Below are positions 1,592-14,881 of a stretch of DNA of 64,000 nucleotides, one piece after another. The stretch is taken from NCBI GenBank assembly GCA_022711175.1, contig JAKLFM010000006.1, positions 8,720 through 72,719 of the forward strand, given 5' to 3'. Numbering within the stretch: position 1 is the first letter of the stretch; every line of letters begins with the position of its first letter. Position numbers and translations under genes: made by a program. This DNA is from Bacteroidota bacterium. GTDB taxonomy: Bacteria > Bacteroidota > Bacteroidia > Bacteroidales > UBA4417. The notes beneath the pieces were generated by a model. That model saw only the letters and a list, made by a program, of their open reading frames with translations, did not search any database and was not told the DNA's origin.

Positions 1592-1726
1592 TTATATATC
1601 GAAGTACACATTCAGGAACCCTTCAGGTAATTTTAGCTTAGACACTATGTCCTTTATTATGTCCTTGGAATAGTTTATCATCATGTCCTTCATGGACAAT
1701 ATGACCATGAGATTGACCATGAGCAT
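1592..1726 (-). CDS. Candidate small ORF, Met-rich, no recognisable family (44 aa from ATG 1726; the ORF track gives 87 aa from 1855)
   Basis: The frame is open across both repeat copies. The ATG at 1726-1724 is preceded by AAGGAGGT, with 7 nt between the motif and the ATG. The stop lies 6 nt before the GIY-YIG start. Product: MLMVNLMVILSMKDMMINYSKDIIKDIVSKLKLPEGFLNVYFDI. The composition is low-complexity and SD motifs are weak predictors in Bacteroidota, so confidence is low. Confidence 0.2.
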   Translation of the reverse strand: MLMVNLMVILSMKDMMINYSKDIIKDIVSKLKLPEGFLNVYFDI

Positions 1727-1787
1727 CCTTTTAACCTCCTTTTTAACCTTCTTCATGGACACTATGACCATGAGAATGTCCATGAGC
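1688..1787. repeat. Two-copy imperfect direct repeat with 37-nt cores at 1688-1724 and 1751-1787 and a 63-nt period
   Basis: On the minus strand the cores read GCTCATGGACATTCTCATGGTCATAGTGTCCATGAAG and GCTCATGGTCAATCTCATGGTCATATTGTCCATGAAG, with 3 mismatches in 37. There are seven CATG tetramers between 1682 and 1790. The repeat lies in the 205-nt spacer between the deaminase-fusion stop and the GIY-YIG start. Confidence 0.8.
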
Positions 1788-1790
1788 TTC

Positions 1791-3296
1791 TTATTTGCTT
1801 TCCTTAGAAACATATCTAAAATCATGAGAAGTACTTGGTTTACCATTATCACCAATCAGTCCTAGCATTTTTAATTTTTTTAGCTGGTTTGAGGCTTTCT
1901 TTCTTTCAAACCCAAAATTATCCTCATATTCCTTTCTTGAAATTTCACCACGAGCTTTCACAAAATCAAGCCCTGCAAGTTCTTCATCATTAAGTTGGGA
2001 AAGAACCTCGGTATTATCGAGATTACGAACAGCTTCAGCAGAACGTGGAAAGGTAACAATGAGATCAGGTTCGTCATAAGTTATTATTGGCAGGGGCAAT
2101 TTATACTTGTCCCTCATCTCACGATAGGTATCCATTCCAAATTCAGCTTCCTCCATGAGCCCCATGCGGTTAAAAATCAAAGTCAGTTTTTTGTTCCTGC
2201 TGTATGACTTAGCAGTAAACTTTTGAAGTTTCTCAAGCGTATTGGGGTAAACGGGCAGACCAGGGCTTTTTATAATAATCATATCAGGGTAAATTTCAAG
2301 TTGAATTTTAGCCCCATCAATGGAATAATCTCTGTGAACGATAGCATTTACAATAGCTTCCCGAATAACTACCGGAGGAAAGAAAAGAACCTTTTCCCTG
2401 GTAAATGAGGAACGGTCAAAACTTTCCGGAATTACCTTTTTAACCCATGCTTCAACCTGGTCGGGAATTAAAACCAAGGCATCATCAAAACTTTGAACGT
2501 CACTTTCACCAGTACCATAATAAACCTTAGCTTTAACCGATGCCTGTGGGTATTTATTACGAGGGCTTTTGCCAAAAAGCAGGACAGCATTGCCTGTCGG
2601 GACAAGTGCCTGAGTAGCCTTATTGGTTTCCAGTAAGTCGCTTTCTAATAACTCCTGATAGAACCCGGGAGATTTATACTCCAATTTAAGCCCTGTCTTT
2701 TGCATGTACAATTGAAGGGCTTCATCTGATAAACTATCAATATTGGTATTCAGGGCTTGCTGGTACAAAAGCCCGGGGGCTTTTGCTTCTTCTTCAATTC
2801 TATGGTTTCGTTTCCATAATGCCCAATCATCAAAAGCTTTGTTGATTCGTTTTATCTCTTTTACAAGGTCAGAATCAAATTGTTCAACCTCAATCTTATT
2901 TTTTTGAAGGAAGGATACTCCACCGAAATCATCTTTTAAAGCCAAATCTTCTTCTCCGAACCATACTTTAGCAATCCGGGCATTAACAATACGTTCGGAG
3001 CAGGGAATTTTAGGTGCGTTTCTTGAACCGGGCGAACAGGGTTCAAGTGTTGCAAATAGCCAACACCCATCCAATGGGCGATGCCTGTTTTTCTTATCCA
3101 TTAGCGTATATTCAGCGTGATCCCCTTCACGAAGCTCACCTCTGTGGGCAATTTCAACCTCTCCATCGGGAAAAACCAACACAGCACCAACCATAGGGCT
3201 GGGATGGTCGTCACGTGCCTCTTGCTTAGATTTTTTCATGGCCTCAATTGCCATTGACATATATTCACGAGGTTCTTTTCGATTATCAGCTGCCAT
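1791..3296 (-). CDS. Zinc-dependent deaminase domain (RibD/dCMP-deaminase type) fused to a Schlafen/AlbA_2-family C-terminal module (HATPase_c_4 plus winged HTH)
   Basis: 501 aa. The zinc-deaminase signature is H60-A61-E62 (nt 3119-3111, checked as CAC GCT GAA) and P86-C87...C99 (nt 3041-3000). The context is VGAVLVFPDGEV..HRG before the signature and ARIAKVWFGEED after it. Further downstream are NAVLLFGKSPRNKYPQA, FPPVVIREAIVNAIVHRDY (HATPase_c_4 hallmark, about aa 305-395) and a C-terminal wHTH-like segment (GEISRKEYEDNFGFERKKASNQLKKLKMLGLI). Confidence 0.85.
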   Translation of the reverse strand: MAADNRKEPREYMSMAIEAMKKSKQEARDDHPSPMVGAVLVFPDGEVEIAHRGELREGDHAEYTLMDKKNRHRPLDGCWLFATLEPCSPGSRNAPKIPCSERIVNARIAKVWFGEEDLALKDDFGGVSFLQKNKIEVEQFDSDLVKEIKRINKAFDDWALWKRNHRIEEEAKAPGLLYQQALNTNIDSLSDEALQLYMQKTGLKLEYKSPGFYQELLESDLLETNKATQALVPTGNAVLLFGKSPRNKYPQASVKAKVYYGTGESDVQSFDDALVLIPDQVEAWVKKVIPESFDRSSFTREKVLFFPPVVIREAIVNAIVHRDYSIDGAKIQLEIYPDMIIIKSPGLPVYPNTLEKLQKFTAKSYSRNKKLTLIFNRMGLMEEAEFGMDTYREMRDKYKLPLPIITYDEPDLIVTFPRSAEAVRNLDNTEVLSQLNDEELAGLDFVKARGEISRKEYEDNFGFERKKASNQLKKLKMLGLIGDNGKPSTSHDFRYVSKESK

Positions 3297-3322: not shown

Positions 3323-5086
3323 TTAATCTGCTGCCCATCTATATTCAAATGCTTCCTGACCCAAAGAAAGACCCGTTTTCAATCTTTGATTTACTTCAGT
3401 TCCACCCGGCATCATTGGCAACATTTGAAAATAGTTCCGAATTGCAAAATTTATCCCTGTTAAACAAGTTTTTGCCTTAATCCAATTTTGTGGACTAAAA
3501 ACTTTATTTGCAGGTTGTGTTTCATTCGCAGCTGCTTCCAAAGCCATATTCAAACTACTTCCTGCAATTTTTACAATATCAGTAACAAGATTGTTTGAAA
3601 CTGCTTGTTTAAGACACATACTTGGCGAAGGAACTCTATCAGACAAATTATTTACAATGGAAAAACACATAGAAACTGCATATAGCTGGTGATAAGGAGC
3701 ATATGCTTTCATTGCAAGTAAAGTTTGATTTAAGCCGAGTGGATTATCATTTGACCAAGATTTCCATACTTCTTTCATCCAAATGTTTAAGGCTTGAACG
3801 TCCTCCGGTTTATAATCACGTTTAAAAAGAATTTCAAAATATTTATCGAATATTTTGGTTTCACCATAAGAAATGTTCGGTCTTTGAGAATGCCAGGCTA
3901 TTAAGTATTTTCCAAAATCGGATAAATCTATAATAAAGTTCTTGTCTTTTGAAGCAGGTGAAATTTCTCCTCTTTTTGTGATGAAATATCCATTCGGATA
4001 TTTTAATTCAAATGCTCGTTTTAAATTTAGTATTCTTTTATCATTGCTTCTCAGATCTCTCGGTTTGACTGCACTCTGTGAATTTGTATTTATGCTAATA
4101 CGATCTGCCCGGTCACGCTGTGGTATTTCGTAAAACCTGCACATTACGTATGTCTCATCGAGCTTTTTAACGGTTTCACTACAATTCAAAATCGTATTTA
4201 AAGATTGGCATCCATTGACAACACTTAAACCTTTCATTGATACTTTGGAGTCTGCCAATACCAATTTATTACAAATAGCCGTAATGCCATTATGGAAAAA
4301 GAAAAAGTCTTTATGTTTATCACTGAGGATTGTATTTCGGATTCCTTTATTTACAGCATTACTTGTTCCCAAACTTTGGCGGACATTTTTTTGAAAGAGT
4401 GAACCATCCTTAATACCTGGAAATTTAATGCATTCCTTTAGAGGAACTGCTGCAATAATAACTTGAGTGCCAGCTATTGTTTCTTTTAAATATTTACAAT
4501 CTATCAAATTAAGATCGTAATTTATCAATGGATTATCAACTTCTAATGCTATATCATATCTTCTCTTTATTTCATCATCATCAATAACAGTAATCGTTGC
4601 ATCAAAATCATCTTTTTCAGATATTTCTGATAATTGTTTCTGAAAAGTCTCAAGATCATTCAATGCAGCAGGAGTTAATTTTGATGTTGTTATTAGTTCA
4701 AAATTAATCTCATAATCCTCATCCAAAGCATTTGCCACCTCAGAGAGTTTTCTCTGTAATTTTGAATTTGACACATTTTGCAATCTGACCAAATCGCGAA
4801 TCTGCATCCAGGCAGATAAAACTTCCCTTAGAGGCGTAGCATCTACAAATTCTCCCGAATAGAATTTACCCTGAATGATATTTATAATTGATTTATCATT
4901 ATCGATAACAATTGCATCAATTTGCTTATCATTTGCCCCATCAATAATATCATCTTTAGTTTCATTCATATCTCGTTTAAGGATGGAACGAAGATACCAG
5001 GCAACAAATCTTTGACCATCATTCGGAAAGTATTGTTGAAAAAAATCAGCTTTGATCTGTTCTTTAATTGTATCGTAAATTGTCAT
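3323..5086 (-). CDS. AIPR (abortive infection phage resistance) family protein
   Basis: 587 aa. The N-terminus FFQQYFPNDGQRFVAWYLRSIL...DDIIDGANDKQIDAIVID and the central FFFHNGITAICN...VVNGCQSLNTI match my recollection of AIPR hallmarks. The gene lies 10 nt downstream of res and 26 nt upstream of the deaminase fusion. Confidence 0.75.
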   Translation of the reverse strand: MTIYDTIKEQIKADFFQQYFPNDGQRFVAWYLRSILKRDMNETKDDIIDGANDKQIDAIVIDNDKSIINIIQGKFYSGEFVDATPLREVLSAWMQIRDLVRLQNVSNSKLQRKLSEVANALDEDYEINFELITTSKLTPAALNDLETFQKQLSEISEKDDFDATITVIDDDEIKRRYDIALEVDNPLINYDLNLIDCKYLKETIAGTQVIIAAVPLKECIKFPGIKDGSLFQKNVRQSLGTSNAVNKGIRNTILSDKHKDFFFFHNGITAICNKLVLADSKVSMKGLSVVNGCQSLNTILNCSETVKKLDETYVMCRFYEIPQRDRADRISINTNSQSAVKPRDLRSNDKRILNLKRAFELKYPNGYFITKRGEISPASKDKNFIIDLSDFGKYLIAWHSQRPNISYGETKIFDKYFEILFKRDYKPEDVQALNIWMKEVWKSWSNDNPLGLNQTLLAMKAYAPYHQLYAVSMCFSIVNNLSDRVPSPSMCLKQAVSNNLVTDIVKIAGSSLNMALEAAANETQPANKVFSPQNWIKAKTCLTGINFAIRNYFQMLPMMPGGTEVNQRLKTGLSLGQEAFEYRWAAD

Positions 5087-5096
5087 AATAATGAAT

Positions 5097-7736
5097 TTAT
5101 AGTTGCTTTATCAATTCTTTTGCTTTTTCAACTGTGTATGCTCCATCAATCGCTTTTTTGTCAAAAATCATGAAGTAGAAATAGCCATTACCGGCTAATT
5201 CTGCCCATTTGTTGCCCAGTCTGCATTTGGCTGTGCTATCTGAATTATCACGATCGTCGCCTTTGGTTTCGATAACGACAATTTTGCCTGTTTTGGTTAC
5301 TGCAATGAAATCAGGAAAGTGATTAGACTTGAAGCCGTTGATTGAAAAACCTTTGCCGCGGCCAAGGTTACGATGCCAGAAAGCGATATTGGGCAATGAA
5401 GAAATATCGGTAATAACCGATGCTTCGAAATTGTTCATGGTGCCTTCGCGCTCGTATAATGAATGGCTTATTGACGGGCCTACAGGACCCGGGACAATCA
5501 TATCGGGGAAGCTCCATGCTGGTTGTGTAACAACCTTACCAATTTTGATAAGATCATTGAACCGACCTTCAGCAAAGTTGTCGGCGTGTAACCTTATTTT
5601 GGACTTTATCCGATCAGAATAGCTCCATTTGCGAATTAGCATATCCTGTAGTTGCTCGGAGTTGAGCTGGTGGAGGATGCGTTCGATAAATGCCCTGATT
5701 TCCGGGTCTGGGATTGGATACATGTCGCCAATTAGCTGGACGAGCTGGTGTGAGATGTCTTTAATCTGTCCTTCTTTTGGTTTTGCCAGTATCAATTCAA
5801 CAATAGGGTCTTTGACCTGCATGTCTTCAATTTTAGTAAACCGGGGGGTGTATTCATCTTTTTTGACCTGCTCAATATCAACCTTGTATAAATCGGAAGA
5901 AACCTGTTCGAAATCAATCTTAGTGTCTTCGTTGCTGAGCTTAAAGTTGCCAAGCAATGATTCCTGGTTGAGGAGAATTTTATCGGTACCAAAGATGTCA
6001 CTCTGTAATACCTCTAAGAAAAATTGAGGGAGTTTAATAGCGGAGGCAACTGATTTGTTGGCCTCGACGATTGAATAGCGTTTTACTTTATCACCCATTT
6101 CCTGAAAAATATTTTCGTCAACAGGTTGCTGACTTTGTTTTTCAATGATACTTTCCATTTCACGGTTCTGCGTTTCGGCCATGTCCTGAATCTGGTCGAC
6201 TACCGAATTTGTAATCACTTGGGATTGCTGAACACCCGGAGTGAATGAAATTCGGGAGATTTCGATTTCATCTTCGGCTGCCTGAGTTTTTTCCTGCTCA
6301 GGGAACAGGAAAGCTTCGAGGGGTTTAACCGGTGCCTGCCTGATCTCCGTTTCGGACATCGTATCTTTTTGCCGGTAATCTTTTTCGCTGAAACCAGAAG
6401 CCAGCAACCCCTCCACGATATTCTGAAGCGTTTCGTTGAATTTAGCCGAAGCCGTGAGGACATATGAAACATTGAGCAAGGGAGCCGTGTGTTTTGTTAC
6501 ATAAGGCTGCCTTAATACCCTGCCCAGGATTTGTTCTACATCAACCGCCGATGATTTATCGGCCAGTGATGCAAGGATGTAGGCAAAGGGACAGTCCCAA
6601 CCTTCTTTCAGAGCATTGATGGTGATGATGTACCTTACGGGACAGTCTTTTGAACCGAGTGTGATTCCTTTCAACTCGTCCTTTTCGGCTGTTTTGATTT
6701 TAATTTGTTCTTCAGGAATGCCGACTTTTAATAGCTGTTCCTTCAGTTTATCGAAGGTAGTGTTATCGTCGCCGGTGCGGGGCTGAGCCTGGAAGAGTAC
6801 GATAGGCCGGATATATTTACCTCCGCTGCGCTCTTCTTCTTCGGCCAACAATTCAAGTTTGTGCTGCAAATGAAGGGCGCTGTTGATTACCTCTGTTTTA
6901 TCGTGATGATTGTAAACGATGACCGGAAGTTTCACCATGTGTTCTTTTTTGAGCTCAATGGCAGGCACCAGGCTCACGATGTTGCTGTTATCGCGAGGGG
7001 TGGCTGTGAGGTCCAGAACAAATGACGGATTGAGGGCATTGAGCATTTCGACACTTAGTTCGCTTTCGGCATTGTGACTTTCGTCGACCACGAGCACGGG
7101 CGTAAGACTGCGTATAACGTTGATAAGTGCAGTATCGTCAATATCATCGAGCAGCAATGATTTGTCTTTAAGCTGGCTTGCGAATGGCGCAAGCTGACCG
7201 TTTTCCTGGTACACTTTACGGTCCTCTTTGTTGCGTGCCCGAAGACTGGAAAAGCTCATCACCACAATGGTAAGCTGTTCTTTTACAACCGTTGGATTGA
7301 AATTGGAACCTTGCAACAGGTCTTTCTTTTCGTAAACTTCGACCCGGTTGTTGAAGAGGCTGTTGAGCTTTTGCCTGTATGGGTGATCGGGATTGCTGAG
7401 GTTGTTTACCGTTTGATCGAGCAGGTTGCTCCAGGGAACCAGCCAGACCACAAAACGCGGGACATCGGGCGAATAAGCGGTAAAAATGGAGTGCAACGCA
7501 TTACAGGCAATAAATGTTTTGCCACCGGCGGTTGGTACCTTAATGCATACATGCGGAGCATTGGGTATGGAGTTTTTATAGGGTTGCATCCCGCTACCTG
7601 AAATTGGATTGTAGGGGCCTATCCGATCTTCCCAGTACTTATTAAAAGCTGTATTGGTGGCTTTGTACTTCTGAATATAATCGAGGTACAATTCCAGGTC
7701 TTTTATGACTTTTTGCTGATAAGTTTTTAGTTCCAT
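5097..7736 (-). CDS. res: Type III restriction enzyme Res subunit (SF2 helicase plus C-terminal PD-(D/E)xK nuclease)
   Basis: 879 aa. It has Walker A VPTAGGKTF, motif II VVDESHN and motif VI-like QILGRVLRQP. The C-terminus has PDFIAV...VVIETKGDD, a PD...ExK nuclease core. It lies directly downstream of mod; the mod stop is at 7738-7740 and the res ATG at 7736-7734. Confidence 0.85.
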   Translation of the reverse strand: MELKTYQQKVIKDLELYLDYIQKYKATNTAFNKYWEDRIGPYNPISGSGMQPYKNSIPNAPHVCIKVPTAGGKTFIACNALHSIFTAYSPDVPRFVVWLVPWSNLLDQTVNNLSNPDHPYRQKLNSLFNNRVEVYEKKDLLQGSNFNPTVVKEQLTIVVMSFSSLRARNKEDRKVYQENGQLAPFASQLKDKSLLLDDIDDTALINVIRSLTPVLVVDESHNAESELSVEMLNALNPSFVLDLTATPRDNSNIVSLVPAIELKKEHMVKLPVIVYNHHDKTEVINSALHLQHKLELLAEEEERSGGKYIRPIVLFQAQPRTGDDNTTFDKLKEQLLKVGIPEEQIKIKTAEKDELKGITLGSKDCPVRYIITINALKEGWDCPFAYILASLADKSSAVDVEQILGRVLRQPYVTKHTAPLLNVSYVLTASAKFNETLQNIVEGLLASGFSEKDYRQKDTMSETEIRQAPVKPLEAFLFPEQEKTQAAEDEIEISRISFTPGVQQSQVITNSVVDQIQDMAETQNREMESIIEKQSQQPVDENIFQEMGDKVKRYSIVEANKSVASAIKLPQFFLEVLQSDIFGTDKILLNQESLLGNFKLSNEDTKIDFEQVSSDLYKVDIEQVKKDEYTPRFTKIEDMQVKDPIVELILAKPKEGQIKDISHQLVQLIGDMYPIPDPEIRAFIERILHQLNSEQLQDMLIRKWSYSDRIKSKIRLHADNFAEGRFNDLIKIGKVVTQPAWSFPDMIVPGPVGPSISHSLYEREGTMNNFEASVITDISSLPNIAFWHRNLGRGKGFSINGFKSNHFPDFIAVTKTGKIVVIETKGDDRDNSDSTAKCRLGNKWAELAGNGYFYFMIFDKKAIDGAYTVEKAKELIKQL

Positions 7737-7737
7737 A

Positions 7738-9378
7738 TTAGAACTGTGTTATATCTCGAGGAATTTTCTTGAAGATGATGTTTTTGAGTGTCATAAACTC
7801 TTTTGGAAGCAGGCAATTGTCGGCATAGATGACATACTGCGCTGCCGGTGTTTTGATTGTGGCCAATGAATCAAAATCAAGGGTGGTAAGCGAATGCTTT
7901 TCGTAAATGAAGTAGTAGGCCGAATCTTCCTTTTTGCCCAGGAAATATGGGTTATCGGCAGCCGGATCGGGTGGAGTGTAAGGCGTACGTGTTTCGCTGT
8001 ACCAAATGTATTCTCGTATTTTACCGGTTTCCACTTCTTCGTTCAGGAACTCGTTGTTTTCGCCTGTAAAAAGTGGTTTGCCAAGCTCGTAATAATCGAA
8101 ACCTCCGCCAGTACCTTCTTTGTCAGAATAGCCATTAATTACACGTTTTACCCGTTCGGCAGTAATGGTTTCGGCATAATCTTCCATTTCGACCAGGATA
8201 AATTTGCGGTTGCCGCCATCCTGTTTGTTGAGGTTTAAAACGGCATGAGCGGTAGTGCCTGAACCAGCGAAACTATCAATCACAATATCATTGTCTTTTG
8301 TAAACTGACCAATGAGTGAATGAATCAATGAGACAGGTTTTGCATATGAAAAAATAACATCTCCAAAAATATTCTTTAATAATCTTGTTCCTTCTTCATT
8401 TTTAGCAGTTTTTATGAAATGAGCATCCAATGTATCAATTTCCTGGTTTTGTTCAAAAATCCATGTTGATAAAGGCTTCCTGTCTCTTTTGGCGTCTTCA
8501 GGGAATGATTTAAGGCGAGGAGTTGTTAATTTTTTATCAGGAAAGTCCTCTGGAAATATTACTAGATTCTCGTCGACCTTTTGTTTCATTGTTGGTGGAT
8601 AAAACCCCCACACTCTTCCTTTTGCTGGCCAATATCCAGTTCCGGTTTTAGGATTTTTGAGTTCATACCATTGATTAGGTCGCATTTCTTTAGTCATACC
8701 AACAGTTAAAGGCATGCTCGCATAGAATCGGCCATCTCCATCAGACAAATTGTATTTTTCCATGTCTCTTTCTTCACCTCTAACAAAAACAGTATCGGGT
8801 GATTTTGAGTACGCAACAATATATTCGTGGTCTTTTGAAATCCAAGAATTGGCCATGCTTGAACTTACCCTTCTCCTCCAAACGAAATTGGCAAAGAATC
8901 CTTTAAATCCAAAGATTTCATCAAGAATCAGTTTCAAATATGTTAACTCGAAATCATCAATTGAAATCAAAAGAATTCCATCTTTATCCAAAAGTTTATG
9001 TAGAAGTTTTAACCGTGGATAAATCATGCATAGCCATTTATCATGCCGACTAAGATCTTCTCCCTCCTTACCTACAACTGAGTATAGCCATTTTTTTATT
9101 TTCGGATCATTTACATTATCGTTATAGGCCCAGTTTTCGTTGCCGGTATTGTACGGAGGATCGATGTAGATGCATTTGATTTTGCCTTCATACTCAGGCA
9201 GCAGGCTTTTTAGGGCTTCGAGGTTATCGCCGTGGATAATTTTATTACCGCTGCCTGTTGATTGAGGTTGTTCTCTATTATCGGCAGTATAACCGTATTG
9301 GTGTTCGAGGACGCGGTAAGGAACATCCTGGTGGTGGTTTATTACTTTTTCCTTACCGATCCAATTGAGTGTGGGCAT
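7738..9378 (-). CDS. mod: Type III R-M Mod subunit (beta-class N6-adenine/N4-cytosine DNA methyltransferase)
   Basis: 546 aa. The catalytic motif IV DPPY lies at nt 9162-9151 (checked). The AdoMet motif I, DSFAGSGTTAHAV, lies about 300 aa downstream, which is the IV-TRD-I order typical of type III Mod. The gene is coupled to res. Confidence 0.85.
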   Translation of the reverse strand: MPTLNWIGKEKVINHHQDVPYRVLEHQYGYTADNREQPQSTGSGNKIIHGDNLEALKSLLPEYEGKIKCIYIDPPYNTGNENWAYNDNVNDPKIKKWLYSVVGKEGEDLSRHDKWLCMIYPRLKLLHKLLDKDGILLISIDDFELTYLKLILDEIFGFKGFFANFVWRRRVSSSMANSWISKDHEYIVAYSKSPDTVFVRGEERDMEKYNLSDGDGRFYASMPLTVGMTKEMRPNQWYELKNPKTGTGYWPAKGRVWGFYPPTMKQKVDENLVIFPEDFPDKKLTTPRLKSFPEDAKRDRKPLSTWIFEQNQEIDTLDAHFIKTAKNEEGTRLLKNIFGDVIFSYAKPVSLIHSLIGQFTKDNDIVIDSFAGSGTTAHAVLNLNKQDGGNRKFILVEMEDYAETITAERVKRVINGYSDKEGTGGGFDYYELGKPLFTGENNEFLNEEVETGKIREYIWYSETRTPYTPPDPAADNPYFLGKKEDSAYYFIYEKHSLTTLDFDSLATIKTPAAQYVIYADNCLLPKEFMTLKNIIFKKIPRDITQF

Positions 9379-9629: not shown

Positions 9630-11885
9630 CTAAATTTTAGTATAGCAACCATATTGCGGCTGGGATAAATAACGGCCATTAAGTTCTTTCAAAAGGCTAT
9701 CAACTGTCCGGACTGAAAGATTGAACGACTTGCCTAATTCCAATGCTTCGGCACGTTTGAAGTTAGCGGGCAGGGCGTAGAAGAACCTGCGTTTGTTGTC
9801 GCCGTTTTTAAAGACAGCAGTCTCGTTCTGTTTTGGCAGGTTGTGAAACATCAGCAGGCTGTGGTGCAGATAGAGGTCAGCCAGGGAAAGAGATGTTTCA
9901 AAATCAATGTCAGTGCAGGTTGCCTGTTTTGACATATCTCCATTTTCGACTTTGCGAAGTGCGGTGAAAATCATGGCTATGCGGTAGAGGATGGAACCAA
10001 GCCTTTTTACAATACTGGCGGCTTCGTCGTGGTTGAAGGTGACAACCTGGTACAGCCAATTGTCGAAAACGGCATTGAGGCGATCCCATTGGGCACGGGA
10101 AAGTTCAACAATGGTGGGGTACTGCTGCAGAAAACGTGAAATGTCGAAAGTTTGCTGCGAGAGAGCTGTAAAGTGATCGGTGAGGTTGATGTTGTTAGCA
10201 TAAGGCGAAACATCGCGCCAGTGTTGCTCAACTTTGAATGCATAAAATATAAACCGGCTAAACAGACCATCTTCAGCAGAGTTGATGAGGCCGGTAACCT
10301 GGCTGGGTGTACCTGAAAGCGCTACCGAAAGCCGGGGTTCGTTTACCTCAATGTACTCATTGTTGGTTTTCTTTGAGCTTGAAACACGCTCGTGGTGGAA
10401 TGCTTTTCGCAGCAAGTCGGAATAGCCGCCCCACTCTTGTTTGAGGACATTGCCCATGGTGTCGGCTTCGGTTTCACATATTATGCCCTCGCCATCGTTC
10501 TGTTCGAGATGAGTGAGAATTTTAGCATAACTTGTATTGGCGGGAATGTAAAGTACCCTGAAAGGAGGTGCTTCGGGCGGGTCCTCTAAAGGTTCATCTT
10601 TTTTGCGGGAGCGCTCACGGGCTTTGTATTGGTTCAATTCAGCATCATAGCGTTGTTTAGCCTCCTGACTGTCGCGGATCATGATCTCGTGGTGCTTGTC
10701 GGCCAGCATTTTGGCAAACTTCATGGCTCCTTTGCCGCTGGCAGCGGGAGCAATCACAAAGGCGAAAAGGTTAGGATAAGTTGTCTGCTGGGCATAAATG
10801 CCCCTGACATTGGGAAGGCAACCACTCAGAATTGACAATGCACCTGTAAGGAAAACATCGCGTTCGCGGGGATCAGCAAAAGCACCTGCCCCGGATTGCA
10901 ATAGTAAAGGGAGATTACTATAAACGGTGGCAGGGATCAAAGGTGAAGACTTCAGATAGTCTTCCTCGTCATTAGTGACAGTCTGGGAGAGGGGAGTTTG
11001 CGACTTTGCAGAGTTTGCAAACTTTGAAAATTCTACTGAATGGTTTGTATAAGCGCTACAGACAGAAGCTCTTATTTCCTTTTCAGCCAGGTCGAAATTT
11101 TGCTGGCAAAAGTCCAAAGTATCGCTTTCAGGGAGGCCTGCCCGGTTGCAATTAGAGGCAAGCAGATAAATATAATTATTACGGTTTCCATCGATGTAGG
11201 TTTCTTTTTGGTTCGTAAACTGAATTTGTTGTTCGAAAATGAAGAGGGAGTTCAGGTTTTCAGGCTCCTTGACATGAGTGAGTGTTGCAGAAGGTGTCTC
11301 AGGGTGCTTTTCTGACTCAAAAAATTCTGAAGCAGGCAGTTGAACCATGAACTTCTCGTTGTAGATGTTTTTATACATAGCCGGATCGTCACTCACAAAG
11401 CAAAGCCGGGTTATGTCCTTGCATTTGGGGTCACATGGTATGCCAAGTGATTGTTCATAGTAATCCTGTATCTGGCGATAGGCCGTATTGTGATGCACAG
11501 CAGTAGTATTGACCTCGACAAAAACCTTCAGGCCATTGCCACTGGGACTGCGAAAGCATCCGAAAGTGTACGGGATTTTGGAAATGCCTTCAAATGCTTC
11601 GTCCAACTGCCCGGGTGAGAGCTTGTCGAAATCAAGATGGACATATCCGCTATAGTTCTTCAGCAGATGTGCTTTGCGACCACCTTCGTAAGTTCCCGAT
11701 GGAGTGAATGCCGGAAGTTGCTTTTTGAGTTGATCGGCTTTATCGGAATCGCCCGAAGCTAAGATTGTGCGGAGGTGTTCGATTTCGGCTTTGTATTTGC
11801 CGTTACGGATGTCGTTCAGGATCAGGATAAGGGACCTGTTTTCAACCGGTTGGTTGAATCCTGAGAAAATGGTTGCTGTAGCCAT
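9630..11885 (-). CDS. Island replication protein: VirE_N/BT4734-like primase-type N-terminal domain plus DUF3987 P-loop helicase-like domain
   Basis: 751 aa. The N-terminus has LPAFTPSGTYEGGRKAHLLKNYSGYVHLDFDKL...GLKVFV (VirE N-terminal type). The central Walker A is FVIAPAASGKGAMKF. This is a typical neighbour of HTH_17 and integrase genes in Bacteroidota integrative elements. Confidence 0.75.
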   Translation of the reverse strand: MATATIFSGFNQPVENRSLILILNDIRNGKYKAEIEHLRTILASGDSDKADQLKKQLPAFTPSGTYEGGRKAHLLKNYSGYVHLDFDKLSPGQLDEAFEGISKIPYTFGCFRSPSGNGLKVFVEVNTTAVHHNTAYRQIQDYYEQSLGIPCDPKCKDITRLCFVSDDPAMYKNIYNEKFMVQLPASEFFESEKHPETPSATLTHVKEPENLNSLFIFEQQIQFTNQKETYIDGNRNNYIYLLASNCNRAGLPESDTLDFCQQNFDLAEKEIRASVCSAYTNHSVEFSKFANSAKSQTPLSQTVTNDEEDYLKSSPLIPATVYSNLPLLLQSGAGAFADPRERDVFLTGALSILSGCLPNVRGIYAQQTTYPNLFAFVIAPAASGKGAMKFAKMLADKHHEIMIRDSQEAKQRYDAELNQYKARERSRKKDEPLEDPPEAPPFRVLYIPANTSYAKILTHLEQNDGEGIICETEADTMGNVLKQEWGGYSDLLRKAFHHERVSSSKKTNNEYIEVNEPRLSVALSGTPSQVTGLINSAEDGLFSRFIFYAFKVEQHWRDVSPYANNINLTDHFTALSQQTFDISRFLQQYPTIVELSRAQWDRLNAVFDNWLYQVVTFNHDEAASIVKRLGSILYRIAMIFTALRKVENGDMSKQATCTDIDFETSLSLADLYLHHSLLMFHNLPKQNETAVFKNGDNKRRFFYALPANFKRAEALELGKSFNLSVRTVDSLLKELNGRYLSQPQYGCYTKI

Positions 11886-11888
11886 GAA

Positions 11889-12167
11889 TCAGGATTTAGC
11901 CGGTTTGTGGTGCTTATCGAGTAATGCAAGTATATCAGACAAGCGGTAATACACTTTAATGCCTACCTGTGAGTAAGCAATGATTCCTTCATCGCGCCAG
12001 GCTTGGGCTGTGCGCTTGCAGATATTCATGATTTGAATGAACTCCTGGTTGTCGAAAAAGACCTGGTCAGGATCGGTGCGCTGTTTCTTAGCGAGGATCT
12101 CCTCGAGGCGTTTAAGTCTCTCGGCCACCTTTTCCAGTGGTTCACGGCAGGTTTTACAATGTTCCAT
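11889..12167 (-). CDS. HTH_17 (excisionase/MerR-like) DNA-binding protein
   Basis: 92 aa. The C-terminal half IQIMNICKRTAQAWRDEGIIAYSQVGIKVYYRLSDILALL fits the HTH_17 pattern. The gene lies 3 nt upstream of the primase-helicase gene. Confidence 0.6.
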   Translation of the reverse strand: MEHCKTCREPLEKVAERLKRLEEILAKKQRTDPDQVFFDNQEFIQIMNICKRTAQAWRDEGIIAYSQVGIKVYYRLSDILALLDKHHKPAKS

Positions 12168-12169
12168 AC

Positions 12170-12472
12170 CTATCGCCTCCTTCCCCTGGTTAAATTCTCT
12201 GAAACCTGCTTTTCGATTTCTTCGGTGGTATCCTGGCGGTTACGCTGCAACCACTCATCGAGTTCAATACGTTTGAAATACAGCTTTTTGCCCTGGGGGC
12301 AGAAATGCGGAATCTGACGGGTTGAGGTCAGCTTGTAGAGGTGGGACGGGCTTACATCCAGATAGGAGCATGCTTCGTTGAAGTTAAGAACCGTTTTTTG
12401 CAACAGGTTCTGCTCATCCAGTTTTGTTGCGATCTCGGAGAGCTTGTTTAAGATCATTTCTTCGTGTGACAT
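12170..12472 (-). CDS. HTH_17 excisionase-family DNA-binding protein
   Basis: 100 aa. The segment FNEACSYLDVSPSHLYKLTSTRQIPHFCPQGKKLYFKRIELDEWL is the classic excisionase-type HTH_17 pattern. Confidence 0.65.
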   Translation of the reverse strand: MSHEEMILNKLSEIATKLDEQNLLQKTVLNFNEACSYLDVSPSHLYKLTSTRQIPHFCPQGKKLYFKRIELDEWLQRNRQDTTEEIEKQVSENLTRGRRR

Positions 12473-13648: not shown

Positions 13649-14881
13649 TTATTTCAATTGGGTCAGCAAGTTAGCATATTCCAGCTTAACTTCATCGGTA
13701 AAGCTATCGAGATAGTTCTCGGTGACTAGTTCGGAGCTGTGCCCGAGGCTTTCTTTGATGAATGAAGTGGGAACGCCTTTTCTTTTAAGGACCGTTGAAA
13801 ATGAATGACGGGCAGCATACGTGCCGATCTTCATATCAATCTTCTTTTCCTGCCTGATTTCTTCCATATGTTTGTTCACCCATTTGATGAAACGCTGGCA
13901 ACGATGCTTCACTGTAACGGGGCTCAATCCGGCATCCAAAATCGGGAAGAGGAAGGGATTGGCGAGGGTAGTATTCTTTTGCCGGTTGATAATTTCAATG
14001 GCTTTGGGATTCAGCCCGACCTTGATGGGGCGCAGGTCTTTTTTCTTAGTGCGCTTGGTTTTCTGGCGGATGAAATACAAATAACTGCCTTGTATATTTT
14101 CCGGCTTCAGGTGGGCAATATCGGTGAAGTTTATACCATTGCAGAGGTAGGAGAGAACCCAGAAATCGATGGCTTTTTGCCGGTGGGGATCATCAGAAGT
14201 ATAATCCAGGAGTTTCTGAAGGTCATCAGAAGGAAGGGCTTTCTTAATGTTTCGGCCGGCTGGAATCTGATATTTCTTAAAAGGGTATTTGTCAGCCGAT
14301 AGCATATTATGCTCAATAGCCTGGTTGATGATAGCCCGCAGTTGCCTTAAGTAGATGCCTATTGAACTAACAGACTTGCCGGCATTAGTCATATAGTTTT
14401 CATAGGACAGCAGGAACTCGGGGGTTATATCGTAAATCGTGAGATTCTTTTTGAAGTCGCTAATTGAATTGATGGTAGTCTGATAGGAGATGGCGGTTCC
14501 TATCTGGCCATGTTCTTTAAGAATGTTTATATACCTATCGAACCAGTAAGAGAGTTTTGAGAGATGTTGTTCACCTGAGTTGGAGGAACGTTGGAAGAAG
14601 GCCTCTTCGAATGCGACGATAGAGAAAGGGTGGAGACTGTCGATAACCCCCTGGGCTTTGGTTTCGATAGCTTTGAGACGAGTTCTGAGGCTTTTCAGGT
14701 CATTATCGCGGAGGTTGGATGCGAAGAGTTTTTCCCATTCTTCCTTAGTGACAGATTCTTTGATGCCGTACTTTTTTTTGCCTTCGCCGTAGTAAATGTT
14801 TAACTTTACGGGATACTTACCATCCTTGTTTGCCTTGGTTCCTTCTATTACAAAGCCTACTGTTGCTGTGTTTTCTTTCAT
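13649..14881 (-). CDS. int: Tyrosine recombinase / integrase (Bacteroidota arm-binding plus SAM-like N-terminus type)
   Basis: 410 aa. The N-terminus TVGFVIEGTKANKDGKYPVKLNIYY is arm-DNA-binding type. The C-terminal catalytic boxes are YAARHSFSTVL and LGHSSELVTENYL (His...Tyr nucleophile). The gene lies about 160 nt from a tRNA 3' fragment. Confidence 0.9.
   Translation of the reverse strand: MKENTATVGFVIEGTKANKDGKYPVKLNIYYGEGKKKYGIKESVTKEEWEKLFASNLRDNDLKSLRTRLKAIETKAQGVIDSLHPFSIVAFEEAFFQRSSNSGEQHLSKLSYWFDRYINILKEHGQIGTAISYQTTINSISDFKKNLTIYDITPEFLLSYENYMTNAGKSVSSIGIYLRQLRAIINQAIEHNMLSADKYPFKKYQIPAGRNIKKALPSDDLQKLLDYTSDDPHRQKAIDFWVLSYLCNGINFTDIAHLKPENIQGSYLYFIRQKTKRTKKKDLRPIKVGLNPKAIEIINRQKNTTLANPFLFPILDAGLSPVTVKHRCQRFIKWVNKHMEEIRQEKKIDMKIGTYAARHSFSTVLKRKGVPTSFIKESLGHSSELVTENYLDSFTDEVKLEYANLLTQLK

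Follow-up and report, generated by a model that had tools for sequence, protein, structure and literature searches.

A zinc deaminase on a Schlafen-type GHKL ATPase and winged-helix body: an old protein family with a gene-specific 3′ hairpin-repeat array and a possible role in phage defence

The gene analysed here lies in a 64,000-nucleotide (nt) stretch of contig JAKLFM010000006.1 (positions 8,720 to 72,719) of a Bacteroidota bacterium (assembly GCA_022711175.1), hereafter called the window. Its 501-amino-acid (aa) product joins an N-terminal zinc deaminase to a GHKL-type ATPase and a C-terminal winged helix-turn-helix (wHTH), a fusion that is the hallmark of an old and large protein family, and the gene carries on its 3′ side a structured hairpin-repeat array that is specific to it and co-inherited with it. 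With moderate confidence, and by analogy with known systems, we propose that the protein may be a self-contained effector of defence islands in which the deaminase would be gated by ATP-driven oligomerization. A previous interpretation made from the letters of the window (the sequence-only reading) had recognized the two halves of the protein, and had overlooked the conserved array directly 3′ of the gene.

In the search of Pfam that had been suggested with that reading, dCMP_cyt_deam_1 (PF00383) covered aa 10-114 with 43.7 bits (cut-off 25 bits; E 2.6e-11) and HATPase_c_4 (PF13749) aa 328-416 with 52 bits (cut-off 26 bits; E 6.9e-14). When codons are numbered from nt 3296, the deaminase signature H60-A61-E62 occupies nt 3119-3111, and nt 3041-3000 encode P86-C87...C99, exactly as had been given before. 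H60, A61, E62, P86, C87 and C99 do not vary among 60 homologues sharing 53-89% identity, and all of these but A61 remain conserved to 90% or more in 66 homologues with identities down to 24%; because the catalytic residues are conserved across both the close and the distant set, the head is expected to be active. A sequence search of the PDB matched aa 11-155 to solved RibD deaminase domains (E 1.9e-7). Furthermore, an AlphaFold2 model of the 501-aa protein was built on 60 homologues (predicted local distance difference test score 82.5), and Foldseek comparison of both halves, which had likewise been suggested as a check, returned a deaminase fold for the head and structure 3lmm for the body. 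For the head, Foldseek ranked RibG/RibD of B. subtilis (root mean square deviation 2.8 Å over 155 columns, 26% identity) above dCMP deaminase, yeast cytosine deaminase (yCD) and TadA.

Judged by its sequence, the head is RibD-like, yet not RibD. The NCBIfam RibD equivalog model TIGR00326 scored 48.2 bits against a cut-off of 156.35 bits, and no reductase domain was found in the 501-aa protein by Pfam or in the AlphaFold2 model. The insert between PC and C reads SPGSRNAPKIP (PCSPGSRNAPKIPC) and has no His, a conserved His at this place being a listed feature of RibD (PMC3239186). Two basic residues of the insert, R92 and K96, are invariant in the homologue alignment, and the family consensus reads E-D-x-N-P where RibD reads R-D-P-N-P. 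In complex structures of RibG, a D-x-N-P-type motif reportedly holds the ribosyl phosphate. Since the consensus keeps the ribosyl-binding motif together with the basic insert residues, a small, phosphorylated substrate bearing ribose phosphate would be favoured over a polynucleotide. RibD removes the 2-amino group from a guanine-derived ring, so that, speculatively, a guanine-type (2-amino-4-oxo-pyrimidine) nucleotide may be as plausible a substrate as a cytosine-type one.

The remainder of the protein has the organization of the Schlafen-GHKL proteins. The whole body aligns to 3lmm (DIP2311) in Foldseek with an E value of about 1.2e-11, including the fold and the C-terminal wHTH, and aa 297-390 also match 3lmm in the PDB sequence search. 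None of the residues E313, N317, H321, Y324 and G346 varies among 66 diverse homologues, E313 and N317 being those of the E-x3-N motif for ATP and Mg and corresponding to E314 and N318 of RzAgo. At the C-terminus the predicted secondary structure (helices 437-449, 454-461 and 465-477, strands 481-483 and 495-497) is that of a wHTH, homologues match HTH_DeoR, HTH_24, TrmB, MarR and DIP2311-like_C, and the PADLOC models for Csa3/CARF wHTH regions cover aa 421-487. These matches bear out the body that the sequence-only reading had described, an HATPase_c_4 domain followed by a wHTH. A PADLOC model of the SIR2-Schlafen-APAZ type covers aa 134-346 (E 2e-16), and the Argonaute-associated PADLOC matches (Aga_SIR2-PNTD1-PNTD2 and a 1,121-aa prokaryotic Argonaute (pAgo) model) lie on this shared body; we take the Aga_SIR2-PNTD1-PNTD2 model to be the SIR2-Schlafen-APAZ group of the literature.

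AlbA_2 (PF04326), the usual head of such proteins, gave no match in the whole protein, nor in aa 151-501 or 151-299 at E ≤ 10. An AlbA_2 domain hidden between head and ATPase was rejected on these grounds, and the deaminase identified by Pfam and Foldseek does occupy the place at which AlbA_2 normally stands. The combination of AlbA_2 and PF13749 has been named the "Schlatpase" supradomain, modules of which are swapped among pAgo, NACHT and restriction-modification (R-M) systems; in RzAgo, a Schlafen-containing pAgo (SLFN-pAgo), PF13749 is a GHKL ATPase in which binding of ATP (E314 and N318, contacting the gamma-phosphate and Mg) leads to tetramerization and thereby activates the Schlafen tRNase (preprint, 10.64898/2026.05.29.728809). 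RzAgo is the only case in which ATP-driven oligomerization is known to activate a head domain. The "sensor body" of the sequence-only reading can thus be kept as regards HATPase_c_4, but this domain is a GHKL ATPase, which acts as an oligomerization switch in SLFN-pAgo, and a sensory role for it would be conjecture.

The deaminase-GHKL-wHTH fusion is an old, large family. A search of clusters at 90% identity returned 1,891 homologous clusters at E ≤ 1e-3, and all but one of the best 120 of these contain proteins of about 500 aa with both domains. When the body alone (aa 165-501) was compared with 1.8 billion representatives at 50% identity, 92 matches were obtained at E ≤ 1e-30, and among the 66 nearest full-length body homologues 63 carry the deaminase and one carries AlbA_2. 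The fusion is consequently not the one-off or recent exchange of heads that the sequence-only reading had pictured. A scan of genome collections with the single protein gave only eight close relatives, which is why the wider survey rests on metagenome contigs, where 496 of 600 candidate stretches proved to be confirmed relatives. Sources were named as Bacteroidota, Ignavibacteria, Deltaproteobacteria, Candidatus Scalindua and one alphaproteobacterial metagenome-assembled genome, and the relatives are annotated there as 'RecG helicase', 'ATP-binding protein' or 'hypothetical'. No relative of the protein was present in the viral contigs of IMG/VR, and the matches in INPHARED and PLSDB were distant and limited to the body, with none of them full-length; phage-borne homologues were thus rejected for these collections.

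The second element of the locus is the hairpin array. Unit 1 begins 2 nt past the stop codon and reads CTCATGGACA-TTCT-CATGGTCA-TAG-TGTCCATGAAG; a second unit and a partial third one, GGACA-N7-GGACATAGTGTC, follow (Table 1). A unit spans about 63 nt and is built of three 9-10-nt arms, [N4-GGACA]-N3-[N4-GG(A/T)CA]-N3-[TGTCC-N4′]. The N4 flanks covary: between the outer and the inverted arm 87% of cells are paired, with 69 double changes, and between the inner and the inverted arm 83% are paired, with 57 double changes, levels that were reached in 0 of 500 shuffles in either case and that dropped to 26-38% when the arms were slid against each other. The outer arm was absent from the pattern with which units were found, and its conservation is therefore independent evidence. 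Moreover, units within one locus differ in their flanks (ACTT, TCAT, ATCA, ATCT) yet each is self-complementary, which speaks for pairing within the molecule rather than for half-sites that one protein would bind.

Searches of 0.9-1.14 Mb of host DNA with a covariance model (CM R1) and a hidden Markov model (HMM; nhmmer) tied this structure to one gene. With nhmmer, 115 of the 126 matches in 1.14 Mb were on the same strand as a deaminase gene and no more than 600 nt from its stop codon, the others being the mirror image of the palindrome or belonging to one frameshifted gene. At least 46 of the 69 lineages have one to four units, most often spaced by 63 nt, the first of which begins between −14 and +9 nt relative to the stop codon in 27 lineages. 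The array is gene-specific, structured and co-inherited with the deaminase-GHKL-wHTH gene. A generic host terminator or repetitive extragenic palindromic (REP)-like repeat was rejected, because neither the rest of the window nor the flanking host DNA (about 1.1 Mb) contained a further copy; there was no Rfam match at E ≤ 1, and on inspection the motifs did not fit integron attC sites. A coding or read-through array, hinted at by an 87-aa open reading frame (ORF; 1592-1855, minus strand), an in-frame reading rich in His and motif offsets among which multiples of 3 predominate, was rejected as well, because stops occur in all three frames of the array in many loci, because the open-frame length after the stop does not differ between frame 0 and frame 1, and because the stop codons of the deaminase genes are ordinary (TAA 47, TAG 11, TGA 5). 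The 87-aa ORF is an artefact of the repeats, as are ORFs of 80-168 aa at the same place in other loci; their Met/Ile/Asp-rich peptides, e.g. KDIIKDIVS, are GGACAT repeats read in frame +1.

The genomic context was surveyed in 104 loci representing 71 distinct lineages. In four lineages the gene sits inside a BREX operon, with PglX at −1, PglZ at +1 and BrxL at +2; type III Mod/Res genes lie upstream in 4-6 lineages, type IIG R-M and PLD-SNF2 genes upstream in 4-7, a 680-697-aa pAgo gene downstream in 6 of the 71, and Bro-N/PDC-S13 nearby in 5. In 12 lineages, the window's not among them, a gene for a DprA-like protein of about 155 aa (DNA_processg_A/PsyrA-like) stands at +1, directly after the repeat array, and may encode a partner or antitoxin in this subfamily. 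In one locus (L072) the DprA-like gene is fused to DUF3293. HigB, AIPR and AlbA_2 genes were also seen near homologues, and the commonest families among 122 flanking proteins are defence families. No constant partner gene was detected across the 71 lineages, and a riboflavin operon or gene context was never seen in the loci surveyed. Taken together, the gene looks like an autonomous cassette with a preference for defence loci but no need of them. The defence-island setting put forward by the sequence-only reading was in this way found again in BREX, R-M and long-B pAgo loci, some homologues lying elsewhere.

In the window itself, the Mod, Res, AIPR/AbiU-like and deaminase genes are co-directional and closely packed, with 26 nt between the AIPR gene and the deaminase gene, in agreement with the gap reported earlier. 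This gene order is also found in loci with 90%-identical proteins. The association with AIPR and type III R-M, on which the sequence-only reading had relied, therefore holds in the window, but it is not kept across the family, AIPR being a neighbour in two lineages only. The window genes belong to an integrative element with an integrase, HTH_17 genes and a DUF3987/BT4734_N protein; the latter is of the VirE_N type, which has been described near long-B pAgos as orthogroup og_54. A tRNA gene was not found in the 64-kb window, and a promoter and terminator scan of the operon gave counts not above those of shuffled controls.

Table 1. Coordinates of the features discussed (positions are those of the window unless a locus handle, L followed by a number, is given)
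Feature	Position	Strand	Basis and remarks
Deaminase-GHKL-wHTH gene	1791..3296	−	501-aa ORF, ATG start; Pfam PF00383 + PF13749
N-terminal zinc deaminase domain, aa 1-160	2817..3296	−	RibD-like clade, CDA (cytidine deaminase) fold
Middle alpha/beta linker domain, aa ~175-300, common to Schlafen-GHKL proteins	2397..2774	−	PADLOC, 3lmm alignment
GHKL (Bergerat-fold) ATPase domain, aa ~305-420	2037..2384	−	PF13749
GHKL motif I, E313...N317	nt 2346-2360	−	Conservation
C-terminal winged helix-turn-helix, aa ~430-497	1806..2009	−	AlphaFold2, homologue HMM matches, PADLOC
Hairpin unit 1	1749..1789	−	CM R1 49.1 bits, E 1e-12; repeat family D2
Hairpin unit 2	1686..1726	−	CM R1 42.7 bits, E 1.6e-10; D2 copy 87% identity, 63-nt spacing
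Partial third unit	1641..1663	−	CM R1 model positions 10-32, 21.8 bits; D1/D4 repeats
AIPR/AbiU-like gene	3323-5086	−	Pfam, PADLOC; upstream of deaminase gene
Type III Res	5097-7736	−	Pfam, PADLOC
Type III Mod	7738-9378	−	Pfam, PADLOC
DUF4357/GIY-YIG-like gene	743-1585	−	Pfam; PADLOC candidate PDC-S14 (E 8e-80)
HigB-like toxin gene	345-677	−	Pfam, PADLOC
DUF3987 + BT4734_N (VirE_N-type) protein gene	9630-11885	−	
Two HTH_17 excisionase-like genes	11889-12472	−	
Tyrosine integrase of the integrative element	13649-14881	−	
Long-B-type pAgo genes downstream of deaminase genes	L009 5585-7642; L011 11743-13788; L002 11668-13734; L032 4830-6923; L039 12003-14045		
DprA-like gene, examples	L020 9667-10203; L062 11648-12112; L090 11625-12092		9 further lineages
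Viral hairpins (loci L105-L184), examples	L175 741-781; L129 1371-1411; L115 4772-4812; L147 2152-2192		

One of the recurrent neighbours deserves separate treatment. A contig that encodes the identical protein (L009) runs past position 1 of the window and shows an M78 antitoxin gene followed by a gene for a 685-aa Piwi protein, and in the 90%-identical P0003 loci the pAgo gene comes directly after the array of the deaminase gene. Compared with these, the DUF4357/PDC-S14 and HigB-like genes of the window appear to be an insertion between the deaminase cassette, with its repeat array, and the pAgo gene. In the P0003 loci a gene for a giant 2,705-aa helicase of the DEAD/UvrD type was observed after the pAgo gene. 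The nearest relatives of these divergent pAgos are the long-B proteins AfAgo, RsAgo and EcAgo. Among the six pAgo lineages, the pAgos are 35-51% identical against 76-90% for the deaminases, and in one pair the relation is reversed (91% against 61%). Because the two sets of identities do not co-diverge, the pairing has been re-formed repeatedly, and not simply inherited. The adjacency to pAgo is a real enrichment, concerning about a tenth of the lineages.

Hairpins of the same type recur in viral DNA, in contigs of uncultured phages. The pattern GGACA-N7-GGACAT-N2-TGTCC was found in at least 120 viral stretches against 46 for the reversed control pattern, and 23 of 80 fetched viral loci contain a match of at least 35 bits with complementary flanks; control viral DNA, 394 kb in all, contained no hairpin match. 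Of the top 26 matches, 13 have the hairpin just past the stop codon of a gene for a gp32-like single-stranded-DNA-binding protein (SSB) and ahead of a gene for a UvsX-like recombinase, and in several inspected sequences it is followed by a T-run. Two of the loci (L147 and L156) have the hairpin in a long intergenic region beside GTAGAACTA iterons, a region that looks like an origin. Since the phage recombinase is 42% identical to that of Flavobacterium phage immuto, the hairpin-bearing phages are probably phages of Bacteroidota. The hairpin itself was not found in the first 100 kb of immuto, the cultured relative, in which the SSB and recombinase genes abut. Phage immuto (NC_055915.1, L271 18607-37015) carries the full 7-deazaguanine DNA-modification set FolE, QueD, QueE, QueC, QueF and DpdA, an observation that bears, speculatively, only on the idea of a guanine-derived or modified substrate. 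Altogether, the phage hairpin looks like a terminator, and the bacterial one is tied to a single gene family.

We propose the following course of events for a self-contained effector. The gene and its 3′ hairpin array would be carried as one cassette by mobile islands. Deaminases with the CDA fold act as oligomers, and GHKL-driven oligomerization, as in RzAgo, could assemble or unmask the deaminase head. The winged helix would supply recognition of nucleic acid, probably of the hairpin, and the array would probably be the protein's own nucleic-acid ligand, with a regulatory or inhibitory role. Once switched on in infection, the deaminase might corrupt a nucleotide pool, by analogy with DcdV, a defensive deaminase that depletes dCTP/dCMP and is restrained by a neighbouring non-coding RNA, and phage replication would halt. 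Several points weigh against this proposal. The substrate, the trigger and the oligomerization step are all borrowed by analogy from other systems. PADLOC has no model for the deaminase head, and its five matches all lie on aa 134-487, none of them to a deaminase system; the nearest relatives of the deaminase are biosynthetic RibD enzymes, the window protein has EDLAL in place of the family consensus ED-x-NP, and a winged helix is a typical feature of simple transcription factors as well. On the sense strand of the array G.U wobble pairs are not in excess (11 G.T against 23 A.C). Furthermore, the flanking genes are very diverse (148 Pfam families among the 122 neighbours), and there are homologues next to trmE/def/ruvX and inside a glycosyltransferase cluster.

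Three other explanations compete with that of a self-contained effector, two of which also concern defence. The gene and array could form an abortive-infection module resembling a toxin-antitoxin system, in which a repeat transcript or hairpin DNA silences a deaminase toxin, much as in DifV/DcdV and ToxI/ToxN, and in which phage hairpins are triggers or antitoxin mimics. We consider this improbable, although the tandem structured repeats are inherited with the gene in those 46 or more lineages and found nowhere else in the 1.14 Mb, the units of a locus differ and still pair internally, DcdV sets a precedent for a deaminase toxin inhibited by RNA, and viral contigs contain such hairpins more often than the control pattern, the control viral DNA having none. 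The repeats, however, lie 3′ of the gene, whereas DifV lies 5′, as does ToxI with respect to its toxin gene; the protein has no RNase domain with which to process repeats, 23 of the 69 lineages have no detectable units, a preference for G.U on the sense strand is missing, the folding z-score of the window array is just −2.25, and the phage hairpins with their T-run resemble ordinary terminators. A more specific version, which we rate as unlikely too, is a nucleic-acid-gated abortive-infection module in which hairpins, as RNA or as extruded single-stranded DNA, would bind the body and hold the RibD-like deaminase off. Phage hairpins would then displace the enzyme from the array and so act as the trigger, or would serve as antitoxin mimics. 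The substrate in such a module could be a guanine-type or modified nucleotide, e.g. one of the 7-deazaguanine pathway. A modified nucleotide as substrate would explain why the gene is added on to R-M, BREX and pAgo systems, which modified phage DNA can evade.

Alternatively, the protein might act as effector for the long-B Argonaute next to it, which is catalytically inactive: the guide-loaded pAgo would sense invader DNA and activate the deaminase, as long-B pAgos do with their nuclease, SIR2 or membrane partners. The Piwi gene stands 167-505 nt downstream, just past the repeats, in the six lineages, the window's included, its product is closest to the long-B proteins named above, the discordant identities point to a pairing made several times, and Schlafen-GHKL modules are known fused to pAgos and in APAZ partners. 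About 90% of the lineages, however, have no pAgo nearby, and locations within BREX or behind R-M genes suit the gene just as well; the genes of known long-B partners follow the pAgo gene and do not precede it, and in the window's locus three unrelated genes separate the deaminase gene from the pAgo gene. We regard such a partnership as doubtful, and the link is kept as a rival explanation or as a lineage-specific addition. The least probable of the alternatives is that the protein is a transcription factor or a metabolic enzyme of pyrimidine or pteridine type, with the palindromes GGACA-N3-TGTCC as operators for downstream genes. It would fit the riboflavin-pathway deaminases as the closest enzymes, a wHTH like those of the DeoR, MarR and TrmB regulators, inner arms that form a 9+3+9 palindrome upstream of co-directional genes, and the homologues among housekeeping genes. 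But the RibD model was failed by a wide margin (48 against 156 bits), there is neither a reductase nor a riboflavin operon, the downstream genes vary between loci, and the flanks vary within a locus, a variation that a single DNA-binding specificity would not maintain; the repeated placement with BREX, R-M and pAgo genes would also be hard to explain metabolically. A self-contained effector, in which the array may regulate or inhibit the protein, is hence the interpretation that we prefer.

It was not until 2026 that Schlafen-GHKL modules were shown to act as immune effectors, and the present family has long paired the same ATP-switch body with a different enzyme, under misleading database names such as 'RecG helicase' and 'ATP-binding protein'. 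It makes the swapping of effectors on a Schlafen-GHKL scaffold testable, and it is a candidate to join DcdV, dCTP deaminase, RADAR and Cad1, the known deaminases of phage defence. With a head nearest to the RibD-type deaminases of 2-amino-pyrimidines, the protein may attack a nucleotide pool not yet seen as a target of defence. The array, being gene-specific, covarying and recurrent in phages, offers a direct experimental handle and hints at control or sensing based on nucleic acid, possibly a new regulatory principle. Both deaminase defence and Schlafen-GHKL defence are known. The literature searched contains no description of their fusion, a deaminase joined to a Schlafen-GHKL body, and, as stated above, no PADLOC model covers the head, in line with the suggestion of the sequence-only reading that this architecture had not been described as a defence gene.

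Among known systems, RibD/RibG is the best match in sequence and in structure, with a long PC-to-C insert in both and R-D-P-N-P comparable to the E-D-x-N-P of the family; RibD, though, has the reductase and the insert His, neither of which the 501-aa protein possesses, and the latter scores far below the cut-off and has no riboflavin context. DcdV-DifV of Vibrio cholerae and the defensive dCTP/dCMP deaminases resemble the family in combining a CDA-fold domain (PF00383-type) with a nucleotide-binding regulatory domain and, for DcdV, in the defence-island setting and in an adjacent non-coding element, which is known there and suspected here. The regulatory domain of DcdV is, however, a P-loop kinase, where the family has GHKL and wHTH, and Pfam found no P-loop domain in the 501-aa protein; DifV is situated 5′ and does not consist of tandem hairpins, whereas the array of the family lies 3′, and the RibD-like head has no matching PADLOC model. 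In ToxIN, a type III toxin-antitoxin system, tandem RNA repeats lie beside the toxin gene, and phages can carry look-alike repeats. The family shares with it short, tandem, structured repeats on the same strand beside the gene of a potentially toxic enzyme in defence islands, but its repeats are downstream, about 63 nt long and present in 1-4 units, and its protein is not an endoribonuclease. The closest likeness of overall design is to the Schlatpase/COG2865 proteins (DIP2311, 3lmm; RzAgo), which have the middle domain, the PF13749 GHKL domain and the winged helix in common with the family, as well as a length of about 500 aa and R-M, BREX and pAgo neighbourhoods. These proteins carry an AlbA_2 head where the family has a zinc deaminase, so that the predicted output of the family would be deamination of a base instead of the cleavage of tRNA, and the 3′ hairpin array is the family's own.

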